Assembly: GCF_024502345.1 (NCBI RefSeq)
Contig: NZ_JALDNN010000001.1
Source of the DNA: Escherichia coli
GTDB taxonomy: Bacteria; Pseudomonadota; Gammaproteobacteria; Enterobacterales; Enterobacteriaceae
DNA: 64,000 bases
Strand: one strand, 5' to 3'
Both the position numbers and the translations under genes were made by a program. Under the pieces are notes generated by a model that saw nothing but the letters and a program-made list of their open reading frames with translations, was not told where the DNA came from and ran no database searches. This document shows positions 1 through 64,000 of this stretch, one piece after another (the first letter of the stretch is position 1; each line of letters starts with the position of its first letter).

Positions 1-2
1 GC

Positions 3-16460: not shown

Positions 16461-16669
16461 TGTTAATACTTCTACTTATAAAGTATTAGTTTAATAACGA
16501 TACTCTAAAGCCTTATGCTAATCAACTGTGACAGGATGAAAAATCGCCATCAAACATTTAGCCTAATTTTTACGCTAGTTATTAATGTAATCATTCTAAT
16601 ACTTAACCGCCATTAAACTCAGAACCGAAAACGATAGTGGCCGTCCTATAACAGCCACTAACATCTAAC

Positions 16670-18094
16670 TTAATGTTTAACCATGACGTGGCGGACGACG
16701 GTGTAATCCTCCAGCCCATAAAGTGACATATCCTTGCCGTAACCAGAAAGTTTCTGCCCACCGTGCGGCATTTCACTTACCAGCATGAAATGGGTATTGA
16801 CCCAGGTACAACCATATTGCAGTCGTGCGCTGACGCGATGCGCCCTGCCCACATCTTTCGTCCATACCGAAGATGCAAGTCCGTACTGGCTGTCATTCGC
16901 CCAGTTCACCACCTGTTCTTCGTTGTCGAAGAGCGTAACACTCACTACTGGACCAAATACCTCTTTTTGCACGATGGCATCGTCCTGTAATGCGCCAGCC
17001 AGCAGCGTCGGCTCATAGTAATAGCCATTACCCTTGCGCTTTTCACCGCCAGTGATCACTTTGATGTGCCCTGTCGCTTTCGCCTCTTCTACTGCCTTGC
17101 TGACGCGTTCGAGATGCGCCAGCGAGCTTAAAGGTCCAAGCTCCGTAGACTCGTCATCCGGCGCACCAGATTTTAACGTTGCCACTGCAGCACCGAGTTT
17201 TTCCACCAACGTATCGTAAATGCCTTTTTGCGCGTAGATCCGACAAGCCGCAGTACAATCCTGTCCGGCATTGTAATAGCCAAATGTACGTACACCTTCG
17301 ACCACTGCTTCAATATCCGCATCATCAAAAACAATCACTGGCGCTTTGCCACCAAGTTCCATATGAGTTCGCTTAATGGACGGCGCGGTATGGCTGATGA
17401 TGTGCTCGCCGGTGGCGATAGAGCCCGTCAGCGACACCATCCGCACTTTGGGATGACCGGTCAGCGGATCGCCCACCGTTTTGCCTCTGCCAAACAGCAC
17501 ATTAATCACGCCTGCCGGGAAGATATCTTTCGCCAGCCCTGCCAACTTCAACGCGGTCAGCGGGGTAATTTCTGATGGTTTAAGCACTACGCAGTTCCCT
17601 GCCGCCAGCGCCGGAGCAAGTTTCCACGCTGCCATCATCAGCGGATAATTCCACGGTGCGATAGAAGCCACGACCCCCAACGGATCGCGACGGATCATCG
17701 AAGTATGACCTTCAAGATATTCACCTGCCGCCAGACCATTCAGACAGCGCGCCGCACCCGCGAAAAAGCGAAAAACATCGACAATCGCCGGGATTTCATC
17801 ATTGAACGCACTATGCAGCGGTTTGCCACAATTACGGGACTCCAGTTCGGCAAAAACCTGACCATTTTCTTCGATTACATCAGCCAGTTTCAGCAGACAT
17901 TCCGCACGCACTTTCGGCGTGGTTTGCCCCCATTCGGCAAATGCTGCATCTGCCGCGCGCACAGCAGCATCGACCTGCTCTGCGGATGCCTCGGCAATCT
18001 CCAGTAAAACGTCCCCCGTTGCCGGACTATAGACAGGCTGTTTTTCCCCTTCGCCGCTAACCAGTTCTCCGTTAATCAGTAACTTATGTTGCAT
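16670..18094 (-). CDS. patD: Gamma-aminobutyraldehyde dehydrogenase
   Basis: 474-aa aldehyde dehydrogenase ORF; conserved position. Confidence 0.9.
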
Positions 18095-18910: not shown

Positions 18911-19841
18911 CGAACGCTCCCAGACGTTTCACGAACGCCAGGTACAGTGCGATGAGAACAATCGGCACCAGGGTGAATGCCGCCGCCATCGGCATATTGC
19001 CAATCGCCCCCTGCTGGGAATAAACCATATTGCCGATAAAATATCCTGGCGGGCCAACCAGCTGCGGGACGATAAAATCGCCCAGTGTGAGTGAGAAGGT
19101 AAAGATAGAGCCAGCGGCAATGCCCGGGATCGCCAGCGGCAGCACCACATAGCGAAAGGTTTGTCGTGGACGTGCGCCGAGATCAGCCGACGCCTGCAAC
19201 AATGACGGCGGCAAACGCTCAAGCGCCGCCTGCACGGGCAGGATCATGAACGGCAGCCAGATATAGAGAAACACCAGAAAGCGCCCCAGCCCGGAAGTTG
19301 ACAGCGTATTGCCGCCCACCGCAGGTAATGTAAGGAACGCAGTCAGCAGTGGTTCCAGCCCAAGATGTTGTAAAAACCACTGAGCCACGCCATCTTTTGC
19401 CAGCAATAACGTCCAGGCATAGGCTTTAACAATGTAGCTCGCCCACATCGGCAACATTACCGCAATATAAAAAAACGCTTTCATTTTCCCGCTGGTATAG
19501 CGCGCCATATACCACGCCATTGGAAAAGCCAGAATGGCGCTGGCGATAGTGACTGCCACAGCCATAGTCAGCGTGCGGAGAATGATGTCGTAATTTGCCG
19601 GATTAAACAGCGCACGGATGTTCGCCAGCGTCCGTTCCGGCGTTACCGACATGGTGAAATCGTCAAAGGTATAAAAGCCCTGCCATAACAGCGTTAGCAG
19701 CGAGCCGAAATAGACAATGCCAAACCACATTAGCGGGCCAAGCAGCAGCAAAAACAGCCCCAGCCCCGGATTCCGCCAGAAGAAACCGGACACCTTACCC
19801 AGACCTGGACGTGAAGGTGATTGCAATACGTTCATCGCCAT
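18900..19841 (-). CDS. ydcU: ABC transporter permease
   Basis: 313-aa membrane ORF overlapping ydcV. Confidence 0.9.
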
Positions 19842-20855
19842 TCACCTCTCCTCAACCAGCGGCACCATCACATCACGCGACCAGGAAACCATCACCTGTT
19901 GTCCGGGCGTGAGCGTGGCAGGCAGTTCTTCGCCTGTCATATTGGCCTGACTCACAAGCAGTTTTTCACCGCCGTTCAATTTCAGTTCAAAACGAGTTGC
20001 CGCGCCCTGATATTGCACCGCCTGGATCGTGCCATTGGCCTGCAGTTCACCAGAGGTGTTGAGGCGGATATGTTCCGGTCGCAGGGCGAAGCTTCCCGTC
20101 ATACCACAAAGTTTCTCTGCCATCAGTCCATCAAAAACATTCGATGTACCAACGAACCCGGCAACAAACGGCGTGCGCGGGCGCATATAGAGATCGCGCG
20201 GGGAATCGACCTGCTCAATGCGTCCATTATTGAAAACCGCCACACGATCGGACATCGATAATGCCTCGCCCTGATCGTGGGTGACGAAGATAAAAGTGAT
20301 GCCGAGAGACTGTTGCAGCTTTTTCAGCTCAAGCTGCATTTGTTCTCGCAATTTGAGATCCAGTGCGCCGAGCGGTTCATCCAACAGCAATACGCGCGGT
20401 TCGTTCACCAGAGCTCTGGCAATGGCGACTCGCTGACGTTGACCACCAGAAAGTTGTGACGGTTTGCGTTGCTGAACAAAACCCAGCGCCACTTTCTCCA
20501 GCGCCTCTTGCGCCATTGCGTGCCGCTGCTTTTTATTCACGCCTTTGACCATCAGCCCGTAGGCGACGTTGTCAAGAATCGACATATGCGGAAATAGCGC
20601 GTAGTCCTGGAAGACAGTATTCACGTCCCGCTCCCACGGTGGCAGATTGCTGGCGGGTTTACCAAAGATAGAGATAGCCCCGCCGGAAAGCTGTTCGAAG
20701 CCAGCAATCAGGCGCAGGCAGGTGGTTTTGCCGGAGCCGGACGGCCCCAGCATAGAGAAGAACTCACCATCTTTTATCGCAATACTGACGCCATCTACTG
20801 CGCGCACGTCACCGTACAACCGCGAGACGTTGTCAAACTCCACTGCGTACGTCAT
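19842..20855 (-). CDS. ydcT: ABC transporter ATP-binding protein
   Basis: Walker A GPSGSGKT, ABC signature LSGGQRQR, Walker B LLLDEP. Confidence 0.9.
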   Translation of the reverse strand: MTYAVEFDNVSRLYGDVRAVDGVSIAIKDGEFFSMLGPSGSGKTTCLRLIAGFEQLSGGAISIFGKPASNLPPWERDVNTVFQDYALFPHMSILDNVAYGLMVKGVNKKQRHAMAQEALEKVALGFVQQRKPSQLSGGQRQRVAIARALVNEPRVLLLDEPLGALDLKLREQMQLELKKLQQSLGITFIFVTHDQGEALSMSDRVAVFNNGRIEQVDSPRDLYMRPRTPFVAGFVGTSNVFDGLMAEKLCGMTGSFALRPEHIRLNTSGELQANGTIQAVQYQGAATRFELKLNGGEKLLVSQANMTGEELPATLTPGQQVMVSWSRDVMVPLVEER

Positions 20856-20872
20856 AAAGCACCCCAGCGAAG

Positions 20873-22018
20873 TTAGCGACCGCCCATAATGGCAATGTAA
20901 TCCTGCGTCCAGCGACTGTAGGGAACAAACTTGCCCCCTTCTGCTATAGGCGTTTTCCAGAAGGCTATTTTATCGAAATAGTTAAAACCGTTTGTTTCAC
21001 ACCCTTTCTCGCCTAATAACGAACTGGCTTTACACCCTTCCGGCACGACTGGTAACGAGCCAAACCAGGCCGCCACATCGCCCTGCACTTTTGGCGTTAA
21101 TGACCAGTTCATCCATTTGTAGGCGCAAACCGGATGTTTCGCTTCGCTATGTAGCATGGTGGTGTCAGCCCAACCGGTAACGCCCTCTTTCGGAAATACG
21201 GTAGCGACAGGCTGGCCTTCGGCTTTCAGGGCGTTGGCCTGATAGGGCCAGGCACTGGAAGCAACCACACCCTCGTTTTTGAAATCGCTCATTTGCACGG
21301 TAGTGTCATGCCAGTAGCGATGGATCAAACTATGTTGATCACGCAGCACTTTCAGCACCGCCTGGTACTGTTCTTCGGTGAGTTGATACGGATCGCTGAT
21401 GCCCAACTGCGGCTGAGTGGCTTTAACGAACAACGCAGCGTCCGCAATGTAGATAGGGCCATCATAAGCCTGGACGCGGCCTTTATTGCTCTTGCCGTCC
21501 GGCAGATTTTGCTCAACAAAAACCACTTGCCAGCTATCCGGCGGCGTCGGGAAGGTTTTAGTGTTGTACATCAGCAGGTTCGGCCCCCATTGGTAAGGTG
21601 TACCGTAAACTTTGCCGCCAACGTTAAACCAGTCGCCTTTAACCACGCGCGGATCGAGCGTTTTCCAGTTGGTAATCAAGGCGGTATTAATCGGCTGCAC
21701 GCGTTTACCCATAATCAAACGCAGCGAGGCATCGCCGGATGCCGTAACCAGATCGTAACCCCCTTTGGTCATCAGACTGACCATTTCATCGGAAGTCGCG
21801 GCGGTTTTAACATTCACCGCGCAGCCTGTCTCTTTTTCGAATTGCGTTACCCAGTCGTATTGTTTATCAGTTTGTCCGCGTTCGATATATCCCGGCCAGG
21901 CGATAATATCCAGTCGCCCTTCCGGTTTATCTAAATTGGTAGGCGGTTCGGCGGCGTGAGCGGTCATTATTGTCATGCTGAGCGCACACAGGCTGCTGCG
22001 GGCAAATGTCTTGCTCAT
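20873..22018 (-). CDS. ydcS: Periplasmic polyamine-type substrate-binding protein
   Basis: 381-aa ORF with signal peptide; first gene of the ydcSTUV operon. Confidence 0.9.
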   Translation of the reverse strand: MSKTFARSSLCALSMTIMTAHAAEPPTNLDKPEGRLDIIAWPGYIERGQTDKQYDWVTQFEKETGCAVNVKTAATSDEMVSLMTKGGYDLVTASGDASLRLIMGKRVQPINTALITNWKTLDPRVVKGDWFNVGGKVYGTPYQWGPNLLMYNTKTFPTPPDSWQVVFVEQNLPDGKSNKGRVQAYDGPIYIADAALFVKATQPQLGISDPYQLTEEQYQAVLKVLRDQHSLIHRYWHDTTVQMSDFKNEGVVASSAWPYQANALKAEGQPVATVFPKEGVTGWADTTMLHSEAKHPVCAYKWMNWSLTPKVQGDVAAWFGSLPVVPEGCKASSLLGEKGCETNGFNYFDKIAFWKTPIAEGGKFVPYSRWTQDYIAIMGGR

Positions 22019-22262
22019 AAGGTCTTACTCCTGTCGTAATTAATTGTTCAGCCGCCGTGCCGTAAAAATATCTCCTTGTTTAACCATAGACGGCGGCTTG
22101 CAGGCACACCTTCGCCCCTGAGAAAATTTAATCAGGTTGTGAGCTACCGCGCATTATACCGTCTGTAAGGTTATCTTCTGGAGTATAGTCAAGGAGTTAG
22201 GAAATATGACTGCTATTCGAAATTCATATTACCCAATCTAAGAGGAATTAAATTAAACGCTA

Positions 22263-23669
22263 TTACAGCCGTTCTTGAATAAGTTTGCCTAATTGTTTTA
22301 CCGCCTGTTCTTCACGTTCTCCCCACTGCCACGCGGTATTAAAACGAAAAAAACGTGACCAGTTTTCACCGGTAGAAAACATTTTACCCGGCGCAATACT
22401 GATATGATGCGTCAGTGCCGCCAGGCTCAATTCGCCGGCATCTAACGGCTCGGGGAGCTCCAGCCAGAGAAAATAACCGCTGTCATTATGATGAATTTTC
22501 ACTTCCGCAGGCAGATAACGCAGCAGTGCCTGCCAGGCACGTTGTTTACGTTCCGCAAGCTGGCGACGCAGGCGACGAAGATGGGCGTCGTATCGGCGCG
22601 TGGAAAGGTAATCCACCAGCGCAAGCTGCATCGGTGAGCTGGTGGAAAGCGTACTCATCAACTGCAATCGTTGAATTTTACGTGCATGTTTTCCGGCGGC
22701 GACCCAACCAATACGAAAACCAGGCACCAGACATTTCGAAAACGAAGAGCAATGCAAAACGCCATCGTGGCGATCCCACGCTTTCGCAGTCAGCGGTTTT
22801 TCCCGTCCAAAATAAAGTTCGCTGTAAACGTCATCTTCAATCAGCGTTACGTTGTACTGATTGAGCAACGCCACCAGTTGTGCTTTTTTTTGCGGCGTTA
22901 AGGTAAATCCGAGTGGATTCTGGCTATTAGTCATCAGCCAGCACGCTTTCACCGGATACTCCTGCAACGCCAGTTCCAGCGCCTGAAGATCGATCCCTTC
23001 TTTAACATCCGTCGCCACCGATAACGCCTTCAGCCGTAGCCGCTCCAGCGCCTGCAACGCACCGTAGAAACAAGGATTCTCTACTATCACCCAATCGCCC
23101 GGTTCAGTTACCGCTTGCAAACTGAGGTTTAATGCCTCTAACGCCCCGGCAGTAATGACAATTTCATCAGGAGAAATGGTGATGCCCTGTAAGGCATAGC
23201 GACGGGCAATAGCCTGACGCAGTTCTGCGTTTCCTGGCGGCAAGTTTTCAATCACGCTCATCGCCGTGGCGGTTTTGCTTACCTGCGCCAGCGAGCGGTT
23301 TAGTTGTTGGAGGGGGAAAAGTCGCGGGTCGGGAAAGGCCGAGGCAAACGGAACGACCGACGGATCGCGACTGGCCTGCAACATATCAAAAATATAAGTG
23401 TTGATATCGACTGCTTCATCTCGAGTGACTGGAATGACTGGCGCTTTCGGCATTTTTATTGCCTGTGGCGCAACGTAATAACCCGACTGCGGTCGTGCGA
23501 TAATATATCCCTGACTTTCGAGCAACTGATAGGCATGGCTGACAGTCATAAAGCTCATGCCAGAAAGCGCCACCTGGTCACGCAACGAAGGCAAACGATC
23601 GCCGGGTTGCCAGATACCCGACGCAATCTGCTCGCGTAATTGTTCTGCAAGCTGCTGGTATTTTTTCAT
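22263..23669 (-). CDS. ydcR: MocR-family regulator (GntR HTH fused to aminotransferase-like domain)
   Basis: 468-aa ORF with N-terminal HTH and PLP-fold C-terminal domain. Confidence 0.9.
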   Translation of the reverse strand: MKKYQQLAEQLREQIASGIWQPGDRLPSLRDQVALSGMSFMTVSHAYQLLESQGYIIARPQSGYYVAPQAIKMPKAPVIPVTRDEAVDINTYIFDMLQASRDPSVVPFASAFPDPRLFPLQQLNRSLAQVSKTATAMSVIENLPPGNAELRQAIARRYALQGITISPDEIVITAGALEALNLSLQAVTEPGDWVIVENPCFYGALQALERLRLKALSVATDVKEGIDLQALELALQEYPVKACWLMTNSQNPLGFTLTPQKKAQLVALLNQYNVTLIEDDVYSELYFGREKPLTAKAWDRHDGVLHCSSFSKCLVPGFRIGWVAAGKHARKIQRLQLMSTLSTSSPMQLALVDYLSTRRYDAHLRRLRRQLAERKQRAWQALLRYLPAEVKIHHNDSGYFLWLELPEPLDAGELSLAALTHHISIAPGKMFSTGENWSRFFRFNTAWQWGEREEQAVKQLGKLIQERL

Positions 23670-23747
23670 TATCGAATCGTAATTATGTGCAGATGATTCG
23701 GCAGTCTATATCAGTTGTTAAAAATGACAACTTTTCATTAACTGTTA

Positions 23748-24185
<438 letters not shown>

Positions 24186-24209
24186 GTCATTAACCTTTTT
24201 AATTGGCGA

Positions 24210-24386
24210 TTAACTCAAACCGAGTTGTTTCAGGATTGCTTTACGCAATGGTTCTTTAATCTCATCGCAGGGGTGACGCGGCATGACACTGCGCCTCCCA
24301 TGAAACCTGAGTTTCAAATGGTTGCTGCCATTCGCTACATCGACGCCCTGAGATTCGAGCCAACGTCTGAACTCGCTTTGTTTCAC
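24210..24386 (-). CDS. hicA: HicA mRNA-interferase toxin (58 aa, GTG start)
   Basis: Translates VKQSEFRRWLESQGVDVANGSNHLKLRFHGRRSVMPRHPCDEIKEPLRKAILKQLGLS; below the ORF-track size cutoff. Confidence 0.8.
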   Translation of the reverse strand: MKQSEFRRWLESQGVDVANGSNHLKLRFHGRRSVMPRHPCDEIKEPLRKAILKQLGLS

Positions 24387-24607
24387 GTCGCCTCCCTGCC
24401 GCTGAGTATATCAACAAAGTAAACATTAGTGTTTACCTCCGTGTGTAATTTGCTCGAAAATAGCACTTAATCGCCGCAACGGCAGAATGCAATGCAAAAT
24501 CAGGAAGGAAGATTCCAGAATTTCTTTGCGCTAATTTGCAAAACTGAATAATAACCTAAAGAAACTATCGGCATCATAGCGGCAAAAGGTAAGAAAAAGG
24601 TGGCAGG

Positions 24608-24838
24608 ATGTTTACGAAGGCGTTATCGGTTGTCTTATTAACGTGTGCGCTGTTCTCTGGACAACTCATGGCAGGGCACAAAGGACATGAATTTGTGTGG
24701 GTAAAGAATGTGGATCATCAGCTGCGTCATGAAGCGGACAGCGATGAATTGCGTGCTGTGGCGGAAGAGTCGGCGGAAGGTTTGCGCGAGCATTTTTACT
24801 GGCAAAAATCGCGCAAACCAGAAGCGGGACAACGTTGA
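24608..24838 (+). CDS. yncJ: Secreted small protein YncJ
   Basis: 76-aa ORF with signal peptide. Confidence 0.75.
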   Translation: MFTKALSVVLLTCALFSGQLMAGHKGHEFVWVKNVDHQLRHEADSDELRAVAEESAEGLREHFYWQKSRKPEAGQR

Positions 24839-24929
24839 GTCGTTTGATGCCGGATGCGGCGTAACGCCTTACCCGGCAGGCAATATCATGCAGATTCAAT
24901 AAGTTGTGAGTAACCAGAAAACTGGCGTT

Positions 24930-26933
24930 TTACCCTTTTCGCTTCGGCAATGTTTTCAGCAGCTCATCCGGACTTACGGATGCCACTACGCTTCCCGGTA
25001 ACGGCATTTTCAGTATGTGATTTTTGATTTTGCCAATGACGTGCATCTCGCATGGGCGGCAATCAAACTTTAGCGTTAATACTTCATCGCCGTTTACCAG
25101 TTGCATTGGCGTCGCCTTCCAGCTTTTGATATTGCCTTTCGCCTGTTTCGGGCACAAATTAAAGGCAAAGCGCAGACAATGCTTGGTGATCATCACCGGG
25201 ACTTCGCCCTTCTCTTCATGTGCCTCATACGCCGCGTCAATCAGCTGCACACCATAGCGATGATAAAATTCACGCGCTTTCTGGTTGTAAACGTTCGCGA
25301 GGAAACTCAGATGCGTTTGCGGATAAACCGGCGCAGGATCAGCAACCGGTTTACGGCTGCCGCGCTGGTAACTGGCAAGACGCGCAGCATCCAGCATGTC
25401 AGCAGCTTCACGGCGGAACTGGTTTAACAGACTGTTTGGTACAAACAGCGCCCCCGGCAAATTAATTTGCACATCGCGGGCGTAATAGATGGTTTGCCCC
25501 AGTTTTGCCAGACCATCCTTCAGATTGTTCATTGCTTTTTCGGCGTTATTGGCTTCGTCGAACTGCCCATCCAGCGTATGCGTGATGCTGACCCCCTCTT
25601 CACTGGTGAGGGTCAGAATCAGTTGTTCCTGCCAGCCGCCCAGTTCAATGTCTACCGCCACCCGACGTTCGCTGGAGGTTTTTGTCAGTGCCTGCTGCCA
25701 GTTATGATCAAGATTACGGTTTAGTGGGTGATGCGGGCGAATTTTGTGCAAATCTGCTGGCATTTCATTGGGCCAGACGCGGTACTGATTTTCTCCGGTT
25801 TTCTCGACCGTATTGGCACGAAAACCGACGACTTCACGTTTAATCAACACGTTCAGGCCATCGCCATTTGCCAGTGGATCGGTAACGGCAACATCGAGAT
25901 GATCTTTCGCCACTTTCAATACTTCACCCACCGGCAGGCCGATAAATTTCGGCGAATCGAACGCGCCAATATCGCCTTTACGGGCATTCACAAAATAATC
26001 TGTGCTACCACGATGGAAAGTCTTTTCCGTCGATGGAACAAAGAAATGTTCAGTACGACCTGATGAAGCGCGCGTCAGATCGCCACGTTCTTCAATAATG
26101 GCATCCAGCATCTGGCGATAATGGGCGGTGATATTCTTCACGTAGCTCATATCTTTGTAACGCCCTTCAATCTTGAAGGAGCGTACGCCAGCATCAATCA
26201 GCGCGCCGAGGTTGGCAGTCTGATCGTTATCTTTCATCGACAGCAGATGTTTTTCATAGGAAACCACCCGCCCCTGATCGTCTTTCAATGTGTATGGCAA
26301 ACGGCACGCTTGCGAGCAATCGCCACGGTTGGCGCTACGCCCTGTTTGCGCATGAGAAATGTAGCACTGACCCGAATAGGCCACGCACAGTGCGCCATGA
26401 ATAAAGAATTCAATGGTCGCGTCCGTGGCCTGGTGAATCGCGCGGATCTGCTCAAGATTCAGCTCTCGCGCCAGCACAATCTGCGTGAAGCCAACATCAG
26501 AGAGGAACTTCGCTTTTTCTACTGTACGAATGTCGCACTGCGTACTGGCGTGCAGTTCAATCGGCGGAATATCAAGTTCCAGAATCCCCATATCCTGAAC
26601 AATCAGCGCATCGACACCGGTCTGGTAGAGGTCAGTAATCAGCCGTTGCGCGGGTTCCAGCTCATCATCATGCAAAATGGTGTTAAGCGTGACGAAAATT
26701 TTTGCACCATAACGATGGGCAAACGGCACCAGCTCGGCAATATCTTTCAGGCTATTACTGGCATTATGACGGGCACCAAAACCAGGGCCGCCGATATAAA
26801 CAGCATCAGCACCGTGCAAAATAGCTTCGCGGGCAATGGCGGCATCGCGTGCCGGGCTTAACAGTTCAAGTCGATGAGAAGATACGGTCACATTCTTATC
26901 CAGTAGCTGAAAAATGGCGGCTATTTTAGCCAC
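24930..26933 (-). CDS. ydcP: Peptidase U32-family protein (YdcP / RlhA, 23S rRNA hydroxylation factor)
   Basis: 667-aa ORF; U32-family signature region; the true start may be a downstream Met. Confidence 0.9.
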   Translation of the reverse strand: MAKIAAIFQLLDKNVTVSSHRLELLSPARDAAIAREAILHGADAVYIGGPGFGARHNASNSLKDIAELVPFAHRYGAKIFVTLNTILHDDELEPAQRLITDLYQTGVDALIVQDMGILELDIPPIELHASTQCDIRTVEKAKFLSDVGFTQIVLARELNLEQIRAIHQATDATIEFFIHGALCVAYSGQCYISHAQTGRSANRGDCSQACRLPYTLKDDQGRVVSYEKHLLSMKDNDQTANLGALIDAGVRSFKIEGRYKDMSYVKNITAHYRQMLDAIIEERGDLTRASSGRTEHFFVPSTEKTFHRGSTDYFVNARKGDIGAFDSPKFIGLPVGEVLKVAKDHLDVAVTDPLANGDGLNVLIKREVVGFRANTVEKTGENQYRVWPNEMPADLHKIRPHHPLNRNLDHNWQQALTKTSSERRVAVDIELGGWQEQLILTLTSEEGVSITHTLDGQFDEANNAEKAMNNLKDGLAKLGQTIYYARDVQINLPGALFVPNSLLNQFRREAADMLDAARLASYQRGSRKPVADPAPVYPQTHLSFLANVYNQKAREFYHRYGVQLIDAAYEAHEEKGEVPVMITKHCLRFAFNLCPKQAKGNIKSWKATPMQLVNGDEVLTLKFDCRPCEMHVIGKIKNHILKMPLPGSVVASVSPDELLKTLPKRKG

Positions 26934-39455: not shown

Positions 39456-39734
39456 TACCGTTGTCTCTCGTCCAGGTTTACTCCTGATAGAAAGTCATCG
39501 GCACTTGACGGTAATTACTTATGACCAAAAACCTCTTTGCGTCACATTTTTACAACAATTATTGCAGAGAAAATTAATGCTATTGGAATGAAGAGAGTAA
39601 CGAATGGCTAAACTGGCTAACCCGAATGACGAAAAATTCTGGAAAACAGCACGCAATTTCGTGAAGTGATTATTTTCGTCCCTAAGGAAACCTCATAGGA
39701 TGCCTGCGGGTGCCTGAGACTTTCTGTTTTCAGG

Positions 39735-39794
39735 CTAACCGGGAATCAGAAAGACGAAGGCCCCGACCGATATTTCTATCAACCGAGGCCAACG

Positions 39795-39805
<11 letters not shown>
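39735..39805 (-). ncRNA. sokB: Putative SokB antisense RNA (position approximate)
   Basis: By analogy with hok/sok loci, the antisense RNA overlaps the mok translation-initiation region; boundaries not determined from sequence. Confidence 0.3.
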
Positions 39806-40003
<198 letters not shown>

Positions 40004-40418: not shown

Positions 40419-40482
40419 CTTCCGATGTAGACCCGTATTCTTCGCCTGTACCACGGGTCGGTTTTAGTACAGGCGTTTTCTT
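40419..40482 (+). ncRNA. rydC: RydC small RNA (64 nt)
   Basis: CTTCCGATGTAGACCCGTATTCTTCGCCTGTACCACGGGTCGGTTTTAGTACAGGCGTTTTCTT matches recalled RydC; TATAAT -10 at 40406-40411; intrinsic terminator at 3' end. Confidence 0.7.
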
Positions 40483-49722: not shown

Positions 49723-52637
<2,915 letters not shown>

Positions 52638-53694
52638 GGCTTTGTTGAATAAATCGAACTTTTGCTGAGTTGAAGGATCAGATCACGTATCTTCCCGACA
52701 ACGCAGACCGTTCCGTGGCAAAGCAAAAGTTCAAAATCACCAACTGGCCCACCTACAATAAAGCCCTCATCAACCGTGGCTCCATAACTTTCTGGCTGGA
52801 TGATGAAGCTATTCAGGCCTGGTATGAGTCAGCAACACCTTCTTCACGAGGCAGACCTCAGCGCTATTCTGACCTTGCCATCACGACTGTGCTGGTCATT
52901 AAACGCGTATTCAGGCTGACCCTGCGCGCTGCGCAGGGCTTTATTGATTCCATTTTTTCTCTGATGAACGTTCCGCTACGCTGCCCGGATTACAGCTGTG
53001 TCAGCAGGCGGGCAAAGTCGGTTAATGTCAGTTTCAAAACGCCCACCCGGGGTGAAATCGCACACCTGGTAATTGATTCCACCGGGCTGAAGGTCTTCGG
53101 TGAAGGCGAGTGGAAAGTCAAAAAGCATGGCCAGGAACGCCGCCGTATCTGGCGTAAGCTGCATCTCGCCGTTGACAGTAAAACACATGAAATCATCTGC
53201 GCTGACCTGTCGCTGAACAACGTTACGGACTCAGAGGCCTTCCCCGGGTTAATCCGGCAAACCCACCGGAAAATCAGGTCAGCCGCCGCCGATGGCGCTT
53301 ACGATACCCGGCTATGTCACGATGAACTGCGGCGTAAGAAAATCAGCGCGCTTATCCCTCCCCGAAAAGGTGCGGGTTACTGGCCCGGTGAATATGCAGA
53401 CCGTAACCGTGCAGTGGCTAATCAGCGAATGACCGGGAGTAATGCGCGGTGGAAATGGACAACAGATTACAACCGTCGCTCGATAGCGGAAACGGCGATG
53501 TACCGGGTAAAACAGCTGTTCGGGGGTTCACTGACACTGCGTGACTACGATGGTCAGGTTGCAGAGGCTATGGCCCTGGTACGAGCGCTGAACAAAATGA
53601 CGAAAGCAGGTATGCCTGAAAGCGTGCGTATTGCCTGAAAACACAACCCGCTACGGGGGAGACTTACCCGAAATCTGATTTATTCAACAAAGCC
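52638..53694 (+). mobile_element. IS903-family insertion sequence, 1057 bp, copy 2 (identical to copy 1, same orientation)
   Basis: Same 18-bp terminal inverted repeats; the encoded ORFs are identical to copy 1; no target-site duplication. Confidence 0.85.
52715..53638 (+). CDS. IS903-family DDE transposase
   Basis: Identical to the transposase ORF at 4131..5054. Confidence 0.8.
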   Translation: MAKQKFKITNWPTYNKALINRGSITFWLDDEAIQAWYESATPSSRGRPQRYSDLAITTVLVIKRVFRLTLRAAQGFIDSIFSLMNVPLRCPDYSCVSRRAKSVNVSFKTPTRGEIAHLVIDSTGLKVFGEGEWKVKKHGQERRRIWRKLHLAVDSKTHEIICADLSLNNVTDSEAFPGLIRQTHRKIRSAAADGAYDTRLCHDELRRKKISALIPPRKGAGYWPGEYADRNRAVANQRMTGSNARWKWTTDYNRRSIAETAMYRVKQLFGGSLTLRDYDGQVAEAMALVRALNKMTKAGMPESVRIA

Positions 53695-54038: not shown

Positions 54039-54287
54039 TTATCATTCCGTGATATTCAGTTTGCTCTATGGTGCATCAATTGTGATGGCGGAGATATCAC
54101 AACGCGGAGCATCAACGTAAATTCGGAATATATCAAGATGTGGTGGATGGTTTTCCTACACATCTGTTTGATTACCGACTGGATGTCAGTGAGATACCAT
54201 CGATCACTGTACGAATCAATGAATCCATTGCCTTTTCCCTGATTATCCAGCCGCAAATCCTGGCCTTAAACATATGCACTCCATGCC

Positions 54288-55197: not shown

Positions 55198-55351
55198 CGC
55201 ACCCTGCCCTGTAATAAAACGGATTGAGAAAAATCAGTATAGAAACGAAAAGAGATAAATAATGCGAAGGCGTAAACAAGATTACTGGATGAGTTGCTCT
55301 ATTGTCCTGAAAAACACAAAACAAAACGCGTCAAGTACCGCATCCGGCAAT

Positions 55352-55383
55352 AAAAAACCGCAACCTGTATAGCGTTGCGGTTT
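55352..55383 (-). terminator. Rho-independent terminator downstream of paaY
   Basis: CCGCAAC/GTTGCGG stem with T-run on the minus strand. Confidence 0.55.
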
Positions 55384-55425
55384 AGGTATCACATGCTAAA
55401 AATTAGAATGTTCAGTATCTGGACG

Positions 55426-56016
55426 TTACTGTTTCGGTCGCAGATTCTCATCAAATACCAGACGTTTCCTGTTCGGTTCAACTTCCCGCAATGGCTCAAC
55501 TTGATGCAACGTCTGCTTACAACGAGTCACCAGCACCTGATACTCATGCGTACCCTGCTTTTTCCATGCCAGCTCCTGCTCACTGAGTTCACGAATCGCT
55601 TTCGCCGGGCTGCCGACAATCAGGTAATTGGCAGGCATTTCTGCTTTGGCTTTCACAAATGCGGATGCGCCAACAATGCTGTTCTCGCCAATCACCGCGC
55701 CGTCCATCACTACCGCGTTCATTCCCACTAATGCATTGCGGCGGATAATGCAACCATGAAGGATAGCGCTATGACCAATATGCCCATCTTCTTCCACGAC
55801 AGTATCCTGTTCGGGAAAACCGTGCATAACGCAATTATCCTGAATGTTCGCGCCATCTTTCACTACGATACGACCAAAATCGCCACGCAGATTGGCATTT
55901 GGCCCAACGTAAACGCCCTTGCCGAGAATAACATCGCCGATCAATACCGCTGTCGGATGGACAAAACTCTCTTCTGGCACAACCGGAGTCAGACCATCTA
56001 TCTGGTAAATTGGCAT
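55426..56016 (-). CDS. paaY: Hexapeptide-repeat thioesterase PaaY
   Basis: 196-aa left-handed beta-helix ORF; position downstream of the paaX remnant. Confidence 0.85.
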
Positions 56017-56555
56017 AACGCCTCCTGTTCAATATTCAAACCGCCAAAACGTTGAAAATACAGGCTTCCCGGCGCAGGCAGTTCACCGACCGAGGTTTCA
56101 CCTTTTTCACTAACGAACGCTAAAGCAGCAGGCGCTACGCGCTGATAAATGTTGATACACAGCTGACGCGCCGTATGCCCTGCCCAGTGCGCCGGAAGCA
56201 ACTCCTCTGGCAACAATGGGTCTTTAAGGACGACACGGCGATAAAAATGGATCAGTAAAAGCTGAATATGAAATGCACGCTCCGGGGTTAACTCGTCTGC
56301 TGCCTCTTTTAACAGCGGCACCAGCGGGCGGAATGACTGAATAAAGGTTTCGTACATGGCATTTTGTTCAGTTAAATGCCAGCACTCTTCCACTCTGGCA
56401 CGCAGTGCTGCACGAGAAAGCGCCAGTGGTATTTGCGCTTCAAAACAAATCACGTTATCCGCCAGAAGGGCATTATTTAGCGCATTACGTGCGGCGGGAC
56501 GGTTAAGGGTCAGCAACAATACTTGTTGCTGACGGCTGACGATCAGTTCGCTCAT
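55998..56555 (-). pseudogene. In-frame fusion remnant: first ~31 codons of enoyl-CoA hydratase PaaF joined to the C-terminal ~154 codons of repressor PaaX
   Basis: N-terminus MSELIVSRQQQVLLLTLNRPAARNALNNALL is a crotonase-type start, but the remainder lacks crotonase features and sits where the paaX 3' end should be; junction near 56462. Confidence 0.6.
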
Positions 56556-57193
56556 GCCATCCCCTTCGCGTCAAAGTCAACCACCACATCGCTGGTCAGC
56601 GGCAGTGCCTGGCAACTCAACACATAGCCTGCGGCCAGTTCATCCGGTTCCAGACTGTAATTGGTTTCCATCGCCACTTTGCCACGCAGCACTTTGCATT
56701 TGCAGGTCGCACAGACGCCGCCTTTGCAGGCATAGGGCAGATCAGCCCCCTGGCGCAATGCCGCATCGAGAATGCTTTCATCGTCGGCATTAAGCACGAT
56801 TTCCCGATCCCGCCCATCCTGACGTACAGTCACTTTTTGTCCGTCACTTTGCACGTTAACGCTACGTTTGACGCGCGTGCCAGGCGTATTAAACCGCTCC
56901 AGATGAATGGTTTTATCTGGCATTCCCAGTGCTTTTAAGGCGGCTTCCGTCTCATCCATCATCGCCGCCGGACCACAAATAAATGCCTCATCATAAAGAC
57001 GAAAATTAATGAGCGAGGCCCCAAGTGACTGTAATTTTTCACCGTCAATACGCCCGTGAAGCAGATCGCTGTCGAGGGTTTCCTGACTGAAAATGCACAA
57101 CAACTGTAAACGCTGAGGATATTTGTCTTTCAGGTCTGCCAGTGCCTGGCGAAACATCATGCTCTGGCTGGTACGGTTACCGTAGATCAGGGT
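56552..57193 (-). pseudogene. paaE: 3' fragment of paaE (ferredoxin-NADPH reductase subunit; 2Fe-2S C-terminal domain retained, N-terminal FAD domain deleted)
   Basis: CKGGVCATCKCKVL 2Fe-2S motif; the frame extends upstream of the listed Met to about 57193, where homology ends. Confidence 0.65.
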
Positions 57194-57956
57194 GATGCCC
57201 GCACAAAACCAGCGACATGCTCTGCAACTGGCTTGTGCAGGCGGCGGTAGCCTTGCGGGAACGCTGGTGACGGCTGATCCGCAAATTGCGCGTCAGTTTA
57301 TTGCCGACGCGGCACGTACGCATGGGCGAATTCAGATCCTCAATGAAGAATCGGCAAAAGAATCCACCGGGCATGGCTCCCCACTGCCACAACTGTTACA
57401 TGGTGGGCCTGGTCGCGCAGGAGGCGGTGAAGAATTAGGTGGTTTACGAGCGGTGAAACATTACATGCAGCGAACCGCTGTTCAGGGTAGTCCGACGATG
57501 CTTGCCGCTATCAGTAAACAGTGGGTGCGCGGTGCGAAAGTCGAAGAAGATCGTATTCATCCGTTCCGCAAATATTTTGAGGAGCTGCAACCAGGCGACA
57601 GCCTGTTGACTCCCCGCCGCACAATGACAGAGGCCGATATTGTTAACTTTGCTTGCCTCAGCGGCGATCATTTCTATGCACATATGGATAAAATTGCTGC
57701 TGCCGAATCTATTTTTGGTGAGCGTGTGGTACATGGATATTTTGTGCTTTCTGCGGCTGCGGGTCTGTTTGTCGATGCCGGTGTCGGTCCGGTCATAGCT
57801 AACTACGGGCTGGAAAACTTGCGTTTTATCGAACCCGTAAAACCAGGCGATACCATCCAGGTGCGTCTCACCTGTAAGCGCAAGACGCTGAAAAAACAGC
57901 GTAGCGCAGAAGAAAAACCAACAGGTGTGGTGGAATGGGCGGTATGGGCACGCTAA
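57194..57956 (+). pseudogene. paaZ: 3' fragment of paaZ (end of ALDH domain plus MaoC hot-dog hydratase domain); last ~20 codons replaced at the tynA junction
   Basis: MaoC-like region …[19 protein letters not shown]…VVHGYFVL…; divergent from the paaE fragment with no intervening paaA-D. Confidence 0.65.
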
Positions 57957-58963
57957 CCTCACCAATTGCTCGTGGTAAAGATGCCCCGTCTAACGCAGTG
58001 CTCCTTAATGAAACCATCGCCGACTACACTGGCGTGCCGATGGAGATCCCTCGCGCTATCGCGGTATTTGAACGTTATGCCGGGCCGGAGTATAAGCATC
58101 AGGAAATGGGCCAGCCCAACGTCAGTACCGAACGCCGGGAGTTAGTGGTGCGCTGGATCAGTACAGTGGGTAACTATGACTACATTTTTGACTGGATCTT
58201 CCATGAAAACGGCACTATTGGCATTGATGCCGGTGCTACGGGCATCGAAGCGGTGAAAGGTGTTAAAGCGAAAACCATGCACGATGAGACGGCGAAAGAT
58301 GACACGCGCTACGGCACGCTTATCGATCACAATATCGTGGGTACTACACACCAACATATTTATAATTTCCGCCTCGATCTGGATGTAGATGGCGAGAATA
58401 ACAGCCTGGTGGCGATGGACCCAGTGGTAAAACCGAATACTGCCGGTGGCCCACGCACCAGTACCATGCAAGTTAATCAGTACAACATCGGCAATGAACA
58501 GGATGCCGCGCAGAAGTTTGATCCGGGCACGATTCGTCTGTTGAGTAACCCGAACAAAGAGAACCGCATGGGCAATCCAGTTTCCTATCAAATTATTCCT
58601 TATGCAGGTGGTACTCACCCGGTAGCAAAAGGTGCCCAGTTCGCGCCGGACGTGTGGATCTATCATCGTTTAAGCTTTATGGACAAGCAGCTTTGGGTAA
58701 CGCGTTATCATCCTGGCGAGCGTTTCCCGGAAGGCAAATATCCGAACCGTTCTACTCATGACACCGGTCTTGGACAATACAGTAAAGATAACGAGTCGCT
58801 GGACAACACCGACGCCGTTGTCTGGATGACCACCGGCACCACACATGTGGCCCGCGCCGAAGAGTGGCCGATTATGCCGACCGAATGGGTACATACTCTG
58901 CTTAAACCATGGAACTTCTTTGACGAAACGCCAACGCTAGGGGCGCTGAAGAAAGATAAGTGA
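57941..58963 (+). pseudogene. tynA: 3' fragment of copper amine oxidase tynA (C-terminal catalytic domain, about 340 codons)
   Basis: TPQ-site motif VGNYDY and conserved His ligands; N-terminal domains and signal peptide absent. Confidence 0.7.
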
Positions 58964-58973
58964 TTGTTTCAGA

Positions 58974-59002
58974 CAAAAAAACGGCACCAGGTGCCGTTTT
59001 TT
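58974..59002. terminator. Bidirectional terminator between tynA and feaB
   Basis: A7-ACGGCAC-CAG-GTGCCGT-T6. Confidence 0.6.
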
Positions 59003-59020
59003 ACTTATGAGCGAACCAGA

Positions 59021-60523
59021 TTAATACCGTACACACACCGACTTAGTTTCACACCAACCGTCCAGCCAGTCGGGGCCAAAATCACGGCCCGTTCCTGACT
59101 GCTTCATCCCACCAAACGGTAAGTTAGCGTCAATTAAGGTATGGCTGTTTACCCACACCGTCCCTGCCTGTAAGCGATCGCTATATTCCAGAGCCTGGGA
59201 GAGATTTTGCGTCCAGACACTGGCAGTTAAGCCATATTCCGTGTCGTTTGCCAGTTGTAACGCCTCTTCTCCATCCGCTACTCGCACCAGGTTTACCACC
59301 GGACCAAACACCTCTTCACGAGTTAAGCGCAATTTAGCATCGGGATTTACCACCAGCGTTGGCGCAACATAATACCCCTCTCCGGCTGGTCCATTCGACC
59401 CGCGAATCAGCTCTGCTTGCTGTGCCTGCGCATCGTCGAGGAATGAACACACTTTGTCGCAGTGCGCACGAGAAACCAAAGGGTTAATCTGTGCAACAGG
59501 TGACATCCCCGGTCCCACTTGCAACGATTTTACCGCCTGCTCAAATCCACTAACCAGCGTGTCAAACAACGGCGCTTCAATATAAATTCGCGAACTGGCG
59601 GCGCATACTTGCCCTTGATTCAGGAAGCTTCCGGTCATCAAGCCTTCAATAACCCATTGCGGATCAGCATCTTTTAATACAATTGCCGGGTTTTTACCGC
59701 CCAGTTCCAGCGTTACACGCGTTAAGTGATCAGCAGCAGTTCTGGCAATACCTTTTCCCGTCGCGGTTGAACCGGTAAAACTGATTTTCGCAACATGAGG
59801 ATGTGACGTCAGGGCCGCGCCGCATACAGCACCTGACCCGGTGACCACATTAAAAACGCCATCAGGGATACCAGCCTCGCTGGCCAGTTCCGCCACGCGC
59901 AACATCGTCAGTGGCGTGGTTTCCGAAGGCTTAATCACGATTGAACAGCCTGCTGCCAGTGCTGGCATCACCTTCCACATACCAATCATCAACGGAAAGT
60001 TCCATGGCACAATTCCCGCCACTACGCCAACCGGCTCTTTACGCGTCCAGGCCTGATAACGCGCCCCCTGGGGTAAGGGAATCGACAAGTCCAGCGTTTT
60101 ACCCGCGATTTTGGTCGTTAACCCGGCGGTATAACGCATCCAGTTCAGCGTACAGCCCACTTCAAAAGCACGGGAAATGGCAATTGACTTGCCTTGCTCC
60201 AGGGTTTCCAGTTGCGCCAGCTCCTCACTGTGCTGTTCCACCAGATCGGCAAAACGTAGCAGAATACGTTCACGCTCTGCGGGTAATCGCCCGGCCCAGC
60301 GACGCGAGACAAAGGCCCGCCAGGCAGACATGACTGCGTTATCTACATCCGCTTCGTTGGCATCAGCAGTAGACGCAATTTCTTGCCCGGTGGCCGGATC
60401 AAAGATCGCCAATCGTTTTTCACTTTGTGCGGGGCCTGGACGACCATCAATATAAAGACCGTGTTGACGATCGAGAAACTGTTGGACCTGGCTTAATACT
60501 GCTACATGCGGCTCTGTCATCAC
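59021..60523 (-). CDS. feaB: Phenylacetaldehyde dehydrogenase
   Basis: 500-aa ALDH ORF. Confidence 0.9.
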
Positions 60524-60755
60524 TTTTCCTTATTATTTACCCAGTGTGATTTCAGTGTACGCAGCGACAAGAAAAGTCACTTTTTTCGCTGTGACATTCG
60601 CTTTGTCAGCTGTGACAAGCTCCGCAAATCGTGACAATAACCGCTTATGTCTCTATGCCTGACAAGACTTATTTCCTATAGTCAGGCTCATTAGCATCGT
60701 TTACTGCAACACAAATGCAACAATAAAAATACATTTCACAGAGCGAAAACGTGCC

Positions 60756-61661
60756 ATGAACCCCGCAGTGGATAATGAGTTTCAGCAATGGCTTTCCCAA
60801 ATCAATCAGGTATGCGGAAATTTTACCGGACACCTGCTGACTGAGCGTTACACGGGTGTACTGGATACGCATTTTGCCAAAGGACTAAAGCTGAGTACCG
60901 TGACAACCAGCGGGGTGAATTTATCCCGCACCTGGCAGGAAGTAAAAGGCAGCGACGATGCCTGGTTTTACACCGTTTTTCAGCTTAGTGGTCAGGCAAT
61001 AATGGAGCAGGATGAGCGTCAGGTGCAGATTGGCGCTGGCGATATTACGTTACTCGATGCCTCACGCCCCTGTTCGCTTTACTGGCAGGAGTCTTCTAAA
61101 CAGATTTCATTACTTTTGCCACGCACTCTGCTGGAACAATATTTTCCCCATCAAAAACCTGTCTGCGCAGAAAGACTGGACGCTGACTTACCCATGGTGC
61201 AACTCAGTCATCGCCTGTTACAGGAGAGCATGAATAATCCGGCACTTTCTGAAACAGAAAGTGAAGCTGCGCTACAGGCGATGGTGTGTCTGCTGCGCCC
61301 GGTACTTCATCAGCGGGAATCTGTTCAACCTCGTCGTGAACGTCAGTTTCAAAAAGTGGTTACGTTGATAGACGATAATATTCGCGAAGAGATATTACGC
61401 CCGGAGTGGATAGCCGGAGAGACAGGTATGTCAGTACGTAGTTTGTACCGAATGTTTGCCGATAAAGGTTTGGTGGTCGCGCAATATATTCGTAACCGTC
61501 GTCTCGATTTTTGTGCAGATGCGATTCGCCATGCCGCAGATGATGAAAAACTGGCAGGCATCGGCTTTCATTGGGTATTTTCTGACCAGAGTCATTTTTC
61601 AACGGTATTTAAGCAACGCTTTGGGATGACGCCAGGCGAGTATCGACGTAAATTCCGCTAA
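60756..61661 (+). CDS. feaR: AraC-family activator of tynA/feaB
   Basis: 301-aa ORF with C-terminal AraC HTH. Confidence 0.85.
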   Translation: MNPAVDNEFQQWLSQINQVCGNFTGHLLTERYTGVLDTHFAKGLKLSTVTTSGVNLSRTWQEVKGSDDAWFYTVFQLSGQAIMEQDERQVQIGAGDITLLDASRPCSLYWQESSKQISLLLPRTLLEQYFPHQKPVCAERLDADLPMVQLSHRLLQESMNNPALSETESEAALQAMVCLLRPVLHQRESVQPRRERQFQKVVTLIDDNIREEILRPEWIAGETGMSVRSLYRMFADKGLVVAQYIRNRRLDFCADAIRHAADDEKLAGIGFHWVFSDQSHFSTVFKQRFGMTPGEYRRKFR

Positions 61662-61696
61662 CTAATTGGCGTTGTGTGTACTGCAACGCCAATTAG
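61662..61696 (+). terminator. 13-bp stem hairpin immediately after feaR stop
   Basis: CTAATTGGCGTTG-(9-nt loop)-CAACGCCAATTAG. Confidence 0.45.
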
Positions 61697-61832
61697 TTAA
61701 AACAAATATTTGACTATGCATTTTTCAGGGCGAAAGGCAATTTGACAGGAGTTTTTGAATATTCACCTTGTTTCAGGAAAATAGATCAATCGCTTTCTCC
61801 TGTAGCGTTATCCCGATATTGCGGTTTTGCTA

Positions 61833-62159
61833 TTAAAATTTTCGCACCCATTTACCGTTTATCCCTTGTACATATTCCCCCGGTTTGGCCCGAGCTACGA
61901 GCTTTTGCCCGGCGAGTTTCGCGATATCATCTACAGACACATTATTTTGCTTTGCCAGTTGTTGGTAACTCGCTTTACGTTCGGCATTAATGTCGGTTAC
62001 TAATTTCTCTGTTTCAGCATCCGTTTTCAGCGCAACCAGATAACCATAAAATGTTTCCCCGACCCGCCCCTGCGTTCTGGCTTCATCCAGAGTCAATGCC
62101 ATTACATTGCTGCTTACCAGCCCAACAAGAAACGCACAAAGAAGTAATGTTTTCTTCAT
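61833..62159 (-). CDS. ydbL: Periplasmic protein YdbL (DUF1318)
   Basis: Start taken at MKKTLLLCAFLVG (signal peptide), 108 aa. Confidence 0.75.
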   Translation of the reverse strand: MKKTLLLCAFLVGLVSSNVMALTLDEARTQGRVGETFYGYLVALKTDAETEKLVTDINAERKASYQQLAKQNNVSVDDIAKLAGQKLVARAKPGEYVQGINGKWVRKF

Positions 62160-62166
62160 CATCGCC

Positions 62167-62352
62167 TCAGAAAAGATCGCTACGAGTTTCAAGCAGCTCT
62201 TCGACATCTTTGTCTGCCTTGATGATGATCTCATGCTCAATTTTAACGTTCATATTGATAGTGATCGGTTCCTTGGGCGCAGCGACTTCAATACGCGGCG
62301 TACAGGCAGCCAGCATAAAAGATGACGTCAACGCAGCCAGTAAAATTTTCAT
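62167..62352 (-). CDS. ynbE: Lipoprotein YnbE
   Basis: 61-aa ORF with lipobox LAACT. Confidence 0.75.
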   Translation of the reverse strand: MKILLAALTSSFMLAACTPRIEVAAPKEPITINMNVKIEHEIIIKADKDVEELLETRSDLF

Positions 62353-64000
62353 TGTTTTTCCTCACACTCTTTTCCTTGCGGACAGTCATTTCCCGGCAGA
62401 CGTGCGTTCTGCTCCAACCATGCCTGGAGATTATCGCCAAAGCGTAAACTGCGCCACAGCGTAAAAATATTCTCTTCATGATGGTAATTAAGGTTTACCG
62501 TACCGCTTTTACCATCAACGCGACTGGTACCTGTAATGTTGGCCTGCATGGTTAATAAACCGAGATTATCTAAATTAATATTTGTCGATGAACGGCTAAT
62601 TTCCATATAGCGCAACCAGTTAATTGCTGAACCCGCAGTCATATTGTCTTTCACCACCGCATCTGCGGTGTCTTTATCCAGCCGCAAGGTCATTGGCCCG
62701 CTATTTGCCAGCCAACCATCTTTCACTATCCATTTTTCGTTGTTTAGCCATAACGGCAATGCACCACTAAATGCCCCGGACATGGCGAATTGTTTCGGAT
62801 TGACGGCGCTAACCAGTTCGCTGGATGAGAGATTATTCAGCCGCAACAGCGCCGGGTCATGTTGCGGCATACGTAATTGTTTCATCAGTACGTTACCGCC
62901 TAACACATCGACGCTAACATCAGTCAACAGCAAGGGTTCTTCTTCAGTCCACGGATAACGCCCTTGCAAATCAGCCGTAATATTTTTCGCTGTCACCAGA
63001 TTAATCACTTCGGCAATTCGCAACGTAACGGGGCCGCGAGTCCCCAGATGCCAGGCTCCATCGGCAAAACGGAAAGGCAGGACAAAATCGACACCGTTAA
63101 CCTGATTATCTGGCATCCAGGCACTACCGCCTTTCAACACGCCGTGCCCTCCCGCGCGGAATCCTTGTTCAGGCGCAGCAGAAAATGCAACCTGAGCATA
63201 CAGTTCACCATCGCGTAAGTTCATCTTCCAGTCGGGTGGCACCAGCGGCTGGAATACAGTCAGTGATTGTTTTGGCCACCAGGCGTTACCGCGCAGACGA
63301 ATACCGTCCCAGCGACCATTTACCCGAACCGGGCCAATCTCACCAGCATGTAAATCGCCTTTAAAGAGGAAATACGTCGGATCGCGCCCATCGACGCTAA
63401 ATTTTAAGGTTGATGGCGGTAACACACTGCCGCCAGTGAACAGCGTTTGCCCGGCGTCCAGTGACAGCGCGCCGCTGAAGGAGGGATGCTGTGCGTCACG
63501 TACCCAGACGACGGGCTTGTCGAGAATTAATCGCGGCTTTTCTACCGTCATCGTACCGTATTGTAACTGGTCGAAACCGGTGGAGAGGTCGGTCAGCGTA
63601 ATCGTGCTGTCATGCCATTCACCTTTTCCTGCGACATCCCAGGTGGCATTCATCGGTGTAAAACTGCCTTTTCCCCAGTAGCGCCACTGCCAGCGGCCCG
63701 CGTCAGGGAGAAAATCATTCGCCAGCCCATCCATATGCAGCACGAAATCGCCCAGTTCATTTTCATGCGCCTGCAAAATGGCCTGCAAACGTCCGTCAAC
63801 ACCACGTTGGGTGACTTTTACACCCGCTAAAGGCCAGCGGATTTCATCGATGTCCAGCGAATCGATGACTCTTCCCTTTGAACGAAGTAACGCGCCTGGC
63901 TCAAAGGCCAGCGTTGGGTCAGTCAGACTTCCACTTAGCTGCGCGGGTAAGCGGGCATATAAAATGAGGTCCGCCTGTTTCGCTTCACCGGTCAGCTGCA
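62349..64000 (-). CDS. ydbH: AsmA-family protein YdbH, C-terminal part (5' end outside window)
   Basis: Long minus-strand ORF overlapping the ynbE start; conserved ydbH-ynbE-ydbL arrangement. Confidence 0.75.
   Translation of the reverse strand, partial: QLTGEAKQADLILYARLPAQLSGSLTDPTLAFEPGALLRSKGRVIDSLDIDEIRWPLAGVKVTQRGVDGRLQAILQAHENELGDFVLHMDGLANDFLPDAGRWQWRYWGKGSFTPMNATWDVAGKGEWHDSTITLTDLSTGFDQLQYGTMTVEKPRLILDKPVVWVRDAQHPSFSGALSLDAGQTLFTGGSVLPPSTLKFSVDGRDPTYFLFKGDLHAGEIGPVRVNGRWDGIRLRGNAWWPKQSLTVFQPLVPPDWKMNLRDGELYAQVAFSAAPEQGFRAGGHGVLKGGSAWMPDNQVNGVDFVLPFRFADGAWHLGTRGPVTLRIAEVINLVTAKNITADLQGRYPWTEEEPLLLTDVSVDVLGGNVLMKQLRMPQHDPALLRLNNLSSSELVSAVNPKQFAMSGAFSGALPLWLNNEKWIVKDGWLANSGPMTLRLDKDTADAVVKDNMTAGSAINWLRYMEISRSSTNINLDNLGLLTMQANITGTSRVDGKSGTVNLNYHHEENIFTLWRSLRFGDNLQAWLEQNARLPGNDCPQGKECEEKQ

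Follow-up and report, generated by a model that had tools for sequence, protein, structure and literature searches.

What brought truncated copies of paaE and paaZ, which paaA-D and a divergent promoter region separate in the intact phenylacetate cluster, into direct contact in this Escherichia coli genome? The two fragments lie in a 64,000-nucleotide stretch of contig NZ_JALDNN010000001.1, here called the window, whose right-hand 14 kb corresponds to the stretch ynbD-pdxI-paaY ... tynA-feaB-feaR-ydbL of the E. coli chromosome, inverted with respect to the K-12 map. Comparison of the window by blastn with an intact K-12 paa cluster (NZ_CP032667.1, reference L001) gave four collinear blocks, all on the same strand (Table 1), and the collinear pattern was also seen against O121 RM8352 and A30. 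Neighbouring blocks overlap by 2, 3 and 5 nt, at joints that we call J1, J2 and J3, and the reference DNA lost between them totals 12,438 bp. Both flanks are syntenic with the native locus, with ynbD...pdxI-paaY on one side and tynA-feaB-feaR-ydbL on the other, and what remains has the same position, gene order and orientation as the intact K-12/W cluster (paaZ / paaABCDEFGHIJK / paaXY, next to tynA-feaB-feaR). Of the 14-gene phenylacetate pathway and tynA, only paaY is whole; paaE, paaF, paaX, paaZ and tynA survive as five stumps, the window has no paaA, B, C, D, G, H, I, J or K, and the deletions also took the two catabolic promoters and the promoter region of paaX. The remnants share 97-100% nucleotide identity with intact alleles and have no internal frameshifts, and the deletions are therefore recent.

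Table 1. Coordinates of the blocks, joints and remnants in the window, of neighbouring features, and of deletion alleles in other E. coli (a slash separates the two reference positions that are joined)
Feature	Window position	Strand	L001 position	Description
Block 1	55425-56464		4374-5413	paaY and 3' half of paaX
Block 2	56463-57195		11847-12579	first 31 codons of paaF and codons 144-356 of paaE; 99.0% identity
Block 3	57193-57944		17001-17752	codons 403-653 of paaZ; 98.1% identity
Block 4	57940-64000		19337-25397	tynA from codon ~418, feaB, feaR, ydbL, ynbE, ydbH
J1	56463..56464		5413/11847	paaX joined to paaF; 6,433 bp lost; microhomology CA
J2	57193..57195		12579/17001	paaE joined to paaZ; 4,421 bp lost; exact 3-bp microhomology TGA
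J3	57940..57944		17752/19337	paaZ joined to tynA; 1,584 bp lost; exact 5-bp microhomology CGGTA
paaY	55426..56016	-	4374-4965 (collinear)	intact, 196 aa, K-12 length; the only whole paa gene
PaaF'-'PaaX chimeric ORF	55998..56555	-		185 aa in frame; PaaF 1-31 and PaaX ~163-316; PF08223 PaaX_C
paaE 3' remnant	56552..57195	-		codons 144-356 and stop; truncated NAD-binding and complete 2Fe-2S domain
paaZ internal remnant	57193..57944	+		codons 403-653 of 681; end of aldehyde-dehydrogenase domain and MaoC hydratase domain
tynA 3' remnant	57940..58963	+		codons ~418-757; PF01179; without start codon, signal peptide or promoter
feaB and feaR	59021..61661	feaB -, feaR +		feaB, 500-aa ORF; feaR, 301 aa; both full length
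IS903B copy	52638..53694	+		1,057 bp, no target-site duplication; replaces 1,321 bp (5' end of ynbC, ynbB, 3' end of ynbA)
ydbD deletion scar	54138..54243			2,348 bp of K-12 replaced by 106 bp of unaligned sequence
A7 deletion			12886/16195	paaE::paaZ
HS-01 deletion			12563/16412	paaE::paaZ
26561 deletion			13088/17280	paaD::paaZ
97.3 type deletion			12988/15181	paaE::paaA
Strain-165 type deletion			5406/17751	paaX::paaZ; 19 genomes
F404 deletion				IS1-mediated; paaX to ydbL

The joint under study, J2, falls inside the interval of 57190-57200 in which the preliminary description had the two fragments abut. Alignment to the intact reference places the breakpoint within a TGA that both parental sequences share, with no filler and no insertion sequence (IS): with a slash for the breakpoint, the paaE side reads ...CAGGGTGA/ACTG, the paaZ side ...ACGC/TGATGCCCGC and the window CAGGGTGATGCCCGC. 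Missing are codons 1-143 of paaE, all of paaD, C, B and A, the divergent promoter region between paaZ and paaA, and codons 1-402 of paaZ. A deletion of the paaZ 5' end, the promoter region and paaA-D, taking about 4-5 kb including the ring-oxygenase genes, had been proposed; the alignments support it, measure it at 4,421 bp against L001, and add the 5' end of paaE to what was lost. The orientation given earlier needs correction, the stumps being head-to-head and divergent, meeting at their truncated 5' ends, instead of tail-to-head. The complete 2Fe-2S domain (Pfam Fer2) attributed to the paaE remnant is present, but is not its only domain, a partial NAD_binding_1 match being found as well (BLASTP, 99% to PaaE 144-356). 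The paaZ remnant does have a MaoC domain (Pfam MaoC_dehydratas; BLASTP, 99% to PaaZ 403-653), but it is not the 3' end of the gene: its last 28 codons were removed by J3, which makes the piece internal. This stump is identical to O121 RM8352 at 752 of 752 positions. The ORF finder called the paaE remnant as a 202-aa ORF starting at an internal Met (56552-57160), and a 254-aa ORF (57192-57956) with a GTG start at J2 is a mechanical call that does not by itself indicate a gene.

Two further joints flank J2, each about 0.73 kb away, and leave retained islands of 733 and 752 bp. J1 removed the 5' half of paaX, paaK, J, I, H and G, and most of paaF. Its paaX side reads ...TATCCGCCA/C, its paaF side ...GCGTCA/GAAGGG and the window TATCCGCCAGAAGGG, with CA shared within an imperfect CG[C/T]CA. 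J3 removed the last 28 codons of paaZ, the paaZ-tynA intergenic region and codons 1-417 of tynA; the paaZ side reads ...TGGGCGGTA/GAGG, the tynA side ...CTACGGTA/TGGGC and the window TGGGCGGTATGGGC, and the shared CGGTA is exact when measured against the matching paaZ allele. The C-terminal remnant of tynA was called as a 342-aa ORF (57935-58963).

The joints were read against the best-matching intact alleles, since K-12 is not the closest match throughout; in the paaF/paaE island, identity to A7 and to the clusters L008 and L010 is 99.7-100%. Against matching alleles all three joints are seamless and keep one copy of the microhomology (CA, TGA and CGGTA), and the apparent mismatches to K-12 near J1 and J3 are allelic differences, not junction-associated mutations. 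No filler bases, IS sequence or terminal repeat was found at J1, J2 or J3 (56463, 57194 and 57942). Direct repeats of tens of bp, the long endpoint repeats of a homologous (RecA-dependent) deletion, are absent as well: within 20 nt either side of any endpoint pair the longest exact match is 7 nt, and for the pairs actually joined the longest direct match is 4-6 nt (a-b 5, c-d 4 and e-f 6). Among repeats of 300 nt or more the window has a single family, IS903B, located away from the junctions. Collinear loss with 1-10 bp of homology and without a mobile element, long repeat or insert is the pattern of a microhomology deletion. A search of the six endpoints for a common motif or structure returned inverted 7-8-nt matches (a-e, b-d and c-f; post-hoc P about 0.03), which we treat as chance.

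Deletions by short-homology (microhomology-mediated) illegitimate recombination are an established class in enterobacteria. The joints described here resemble them in their 2-5 bp of exact microhomology, in the single copy kept and in the lack of filler or a mobile element, and differ from them only in having two endpoints very close to the endpoints of a deletion that arose independently in another clone. We therefore consider it highly likely that J2 is the scar of a 4,421-bp deletion in the native locus by short-homology illegitimate recombination, and that the remnants are silent relics. The TGA in paaE would have recombined with the TGA in paaZ independently of RecA, by replication slippage or microhomology-mediated end joining, and this would have removed the ring 1,2-epoxidase genes paaA-D together with 143 codons of paaE, the divergent promoters and 402 codons of paaZ. 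Two more deletions of the same type, paaX::paaF and paaZ::tynA, would account for J1 and J3. As judged from the sequence of the joints, slippage or end joining is the probable mechanism of all three, and microhomology of 2-5 bp also fits other end-joining routes.

Other origins for J2 have to be weighed against this one. The fragments might be duplicated relics, with a complete paaZ-paaABCDE elsewhere in the genome; however, they lie in native synteny between pdxI-paaY and feaB-feaR-ydbL, the missing 4.4-kb segment has no blastn match anywhere in the 64-kb window, and complete E. coli genomes nearly always have the locus a single time (a median of one place per genome), so that the chance of such a duplication appears very slim. 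An IS-mediated adjacent deletion followed by loss of the IS would have precedents, both in the active-looking IS903B copies of this lineage, which made adjacent deletions 3.5 kb away, and in strain F404, which lost the interval from paaX to ydbL through IS1. Against it stand the seamless joints with their native microhomology, free of IS sequence, and the great rarity with which an IS, having made an adjacent deletion, is then cleanly lost. An IS terminus was found at a junction only at the ynbC-ynbA loss (52638-53694) and at none of J1-J3, and we find an IS-mediated origin of J2 scarcely credible. An assembly or scaffolding artefact is almost certainly not the explanation, given that the same J2 appears in independent assemblies, which differ in sample and in assembler, namely an NCBI isolate draft, MEGAHIT/SPAdes metagenome contigs and Logan unitig-based contigs. 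The full J1-J2-J3 arrangement is present in that draft (GCA_050022275.1), where 10.3 kb reaching as far as the IS903B copy match the window at 100% identity, and in two ENA metagenome contigs (L003 and L005); an identical J2 is also found in a Logan contig (L025, from SRR24000611). None of J1, J2 and J3 occurs among 5,426 complete RefSeq E. coli genomes, J2 was not found in the JGI metagenome collection, and our literature search found descriptions of variable tynA/paa presence and no description of the J1-J3 junctions. Over a neutral 14-kb stretch no complete genome exceeds 99.3% identity to the window, and the lineage is thus poorly represented among finished genomes.

The same contigs bear on whether the three joints arose together. 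L025, 38 kb long, has J2 and J3 with paaF, G, H, I and J intact (1-5261), and so no J1; the only differences from the window in 7.5 kb are a single SNP and a frameshift in feaR. Two ENA contigs, L004 and L006, have J1 and the loss of ydbD and match the window at 100% as far as the J2 site, beyond which paaE runs into paaD. These two contigs are the same, including the 266 bp past the J2 site, which differ by at least 1.5% from every other reference compared; their samples may be related, and chimerism, though less likely, could also have produced the J1-only haplotype that they represent. All these relatives have the 733-bp paaF'-paaE' island in identical form. All three joints could in principle stem from one complex event, by MMBIR-like serial template switching or repair of simultaneous breaks, as three junctions of the same type within 1.5 kb and retained islands of similar size might suggest. 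That J2 and J3 occur without J1, and J1 with paaE continuing past the J2 site, in contigs identical or nearly identical to the window in the sequence that they share, makes a single event very improbable. Because J1-only and J2+J3-only contigs exist, we regard J1 and J2 (with or without J3) as separate events; J2 and J3 were never seen apart, and a joint origin of those two is possible. Intact, J1-only, J2+J3-only and triple haplotypes all exist, and the triple haplotype consequently requires at least one homologous exchange between close relatives, or the restoration of one deletion by import; it may have been put together by such recombination, or by stepwise events and re-import. The separable haplotypes can serve as markers of recent recombination or stepwise decay in one clonal group. 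We had also considered an order in which J1 came first, with loss of the PaaX repressor, and selected for J2 because oxygenase genes of no further use were derepressed; this is weakened by the existence of J2+J3 without J1. In L025, feaR is split by the frameshift into 158 and 143 aa (8822-9726), and in the window it is intact.

Decay of this locus is widespread in the species. At least 80% of the paaY-tynA interval is kept in 3,098 of 5,426 complete genomes (57%), and about 1,000 complete genomes hold only scraps of paa/tynA, such as the 3' end of tynA in a BL21 derivative, paaY with the 3' end of paaX in 042, and a diverged scrap of paaY in ST131. Other E. coli deletion alleles (Table 1) have the same outcome and the same kind of scar, several of them fusing a 5'-truncated paaE or paaD to a 5'-truncated paaZ; in contrast, their breakpoints differ in every case, and three separate deletions are seen here as against one there. 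J2 is genuine but unremarkable, a deletion scar that represents a new allele of a familiar kind in a lineage that is losing the cluster piecemeal, and it reflects how a dispensable catabolic cluster is routinely worn down through short-homology illegitimate recombination. Taken alone it carries little weight, documenting a further loss, specific to one lineage, of a dispensable cluster for aromatic-acid catabolism in a gut E. coli. Two metagenome contigs whose clusters are otherwise complete have paaE frameshifted into ORFs of about 155 aa and 202 aa (L008 2097-3166 and L009 2052-3136); either the epoxidase reductase was independently inactivated here too, or the assemblies are in error.

Any wider interest of the locus is confined to the possible reuse of two breakpoints by independent deletions. 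The strain-165 type deletion, found in an unrelated clone of 19 genomes, joins paaX at L001 5404-5406 to paaZ at 17750-17752 via TA (L016 4159-4160), which puts its endpoints 5-9 bp from the paaX endpoint of J1 (5411-5413) and 0-5 bp from the paaZ endpoint of J3, inside the same CGGTA. Shared descent of this deletion with those in the window is unsupported: the flanks of the strain-165 clone differ from the window by 1-2%, and the 439-bp paaX 3' allele that the two share is also present in an intact cluster (L010). Since J1 and J3 are separable, three independent events would have used two sites. Such near-coincidence is not predicted by random illegitimate recombination, and by a rough estimate its probability by chance is 1e-5, or about 1e-3 once the comparisons made are taken into account. 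The paaZ site (endpoint e) is at the 3' edge of a G-rich tract with a G4Hunter score of 1.08, which is the 97th percentile in the cluster and below the usual thresholds; scores at the other five endpoints are unremarkable. The segment of paaX at L001 5404-5413 (NZ_CP032667.1 2418567-2418576) and the G-rich paaZ site GGTGTGGTGGAATGGGCGGTA/GAGG (17748-17752; 2430911-2430915) might be recurrent hot spots of breakage or recombination, a suggestion that we think unlikely to be right, and for which a structure-forming G-rich tract, a nuclease target or a replication pause site are candidate causes. If true, it would mean that site-specific fragility in the E. coli chromosome shapes natural deletion spectra. 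A Chi-like reading of GGTGTGGTGG was dropped, this sequence having two mismatches to GCTGGTGG and an orientation that does not fit all events.

The consequences for metabolism can be predicted from the genes that remain and from what the paa, tynA and fea genes are established to do. The window has no functional phenylacetate pathway, nine genes being absent, five truncated and the promoter region deleted. Phenylacetate would not be catabolised, because phenylacetyl-CoA ligase, the ring epoxidase, ring opening by PaaZ and the beta-oxidation-like steps are gone. Oxidation of phenylethylamine is also predicted to be lost, because tynA is left without promoter, start codon, signal peptide and N-terminal half; feaB and feaR, upstream phenylethylamine genes, are now without tynA or the paa pathway. 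No growth would be expected on phenylacetate or phenylethylamine. A scan of 55200-59100 for promoters and terminators gave nothing above shuffled expectation, and Rfam had no match in that region. It is most likely that the remnants are recent, silent relics. For annotation, the ORFs at 55998-56555, 56552-57160, 57192-57956 and 57935-58963 are best treated as pseudogene fragments or chimeras, not genes.

The window has undergone several other changes. The loss of ydbD (Table 1), which makes ynbA and pdxI adjacent, is shared with strain A30 and is therefore older than J1-J3; ydbA is also absent from the neighbourhood. In the paa region A30 is the closest strain, but it was rejected as a direct ancestor, its IS being at a different site and that IS only 93% identical. 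The gene ynbD (49723-51040, minus strand) has an in-frame stop near codon 64 and, with ynbC and ynbA truncated and ynbB lost, the ynbABCD operon is dead. A second IS903B copy at 4054-5110 is 100% identical to that at 52638-53694 and in direct orientation to it, 48.6 kb apart. Neither copy has a 9-bp target duplication, and both adjoin DNA that is missing relative to K-12, the copy at 4054-5110 adjoining an 8.5-kb loss from the 3' end of yddE to yncH. The K-12 IS609 (insQ/tnpA) between ydcO and ydcL is missing at 28763/28764, where the junction is clean. Next to patD, a 1.3-kb insertion relative to K-12 (15356-16668), which is not an IS, encodes a 269-aa ORF resembling hexapeptide-repeat acetyltransferases (15651-16460, minus strand). 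Rfam matches to the sok antitoxin RNA of the hokB/sokB locus (39708-39859) and to the RydC sRNA (40419-40482) are at their expected K-12 positions.
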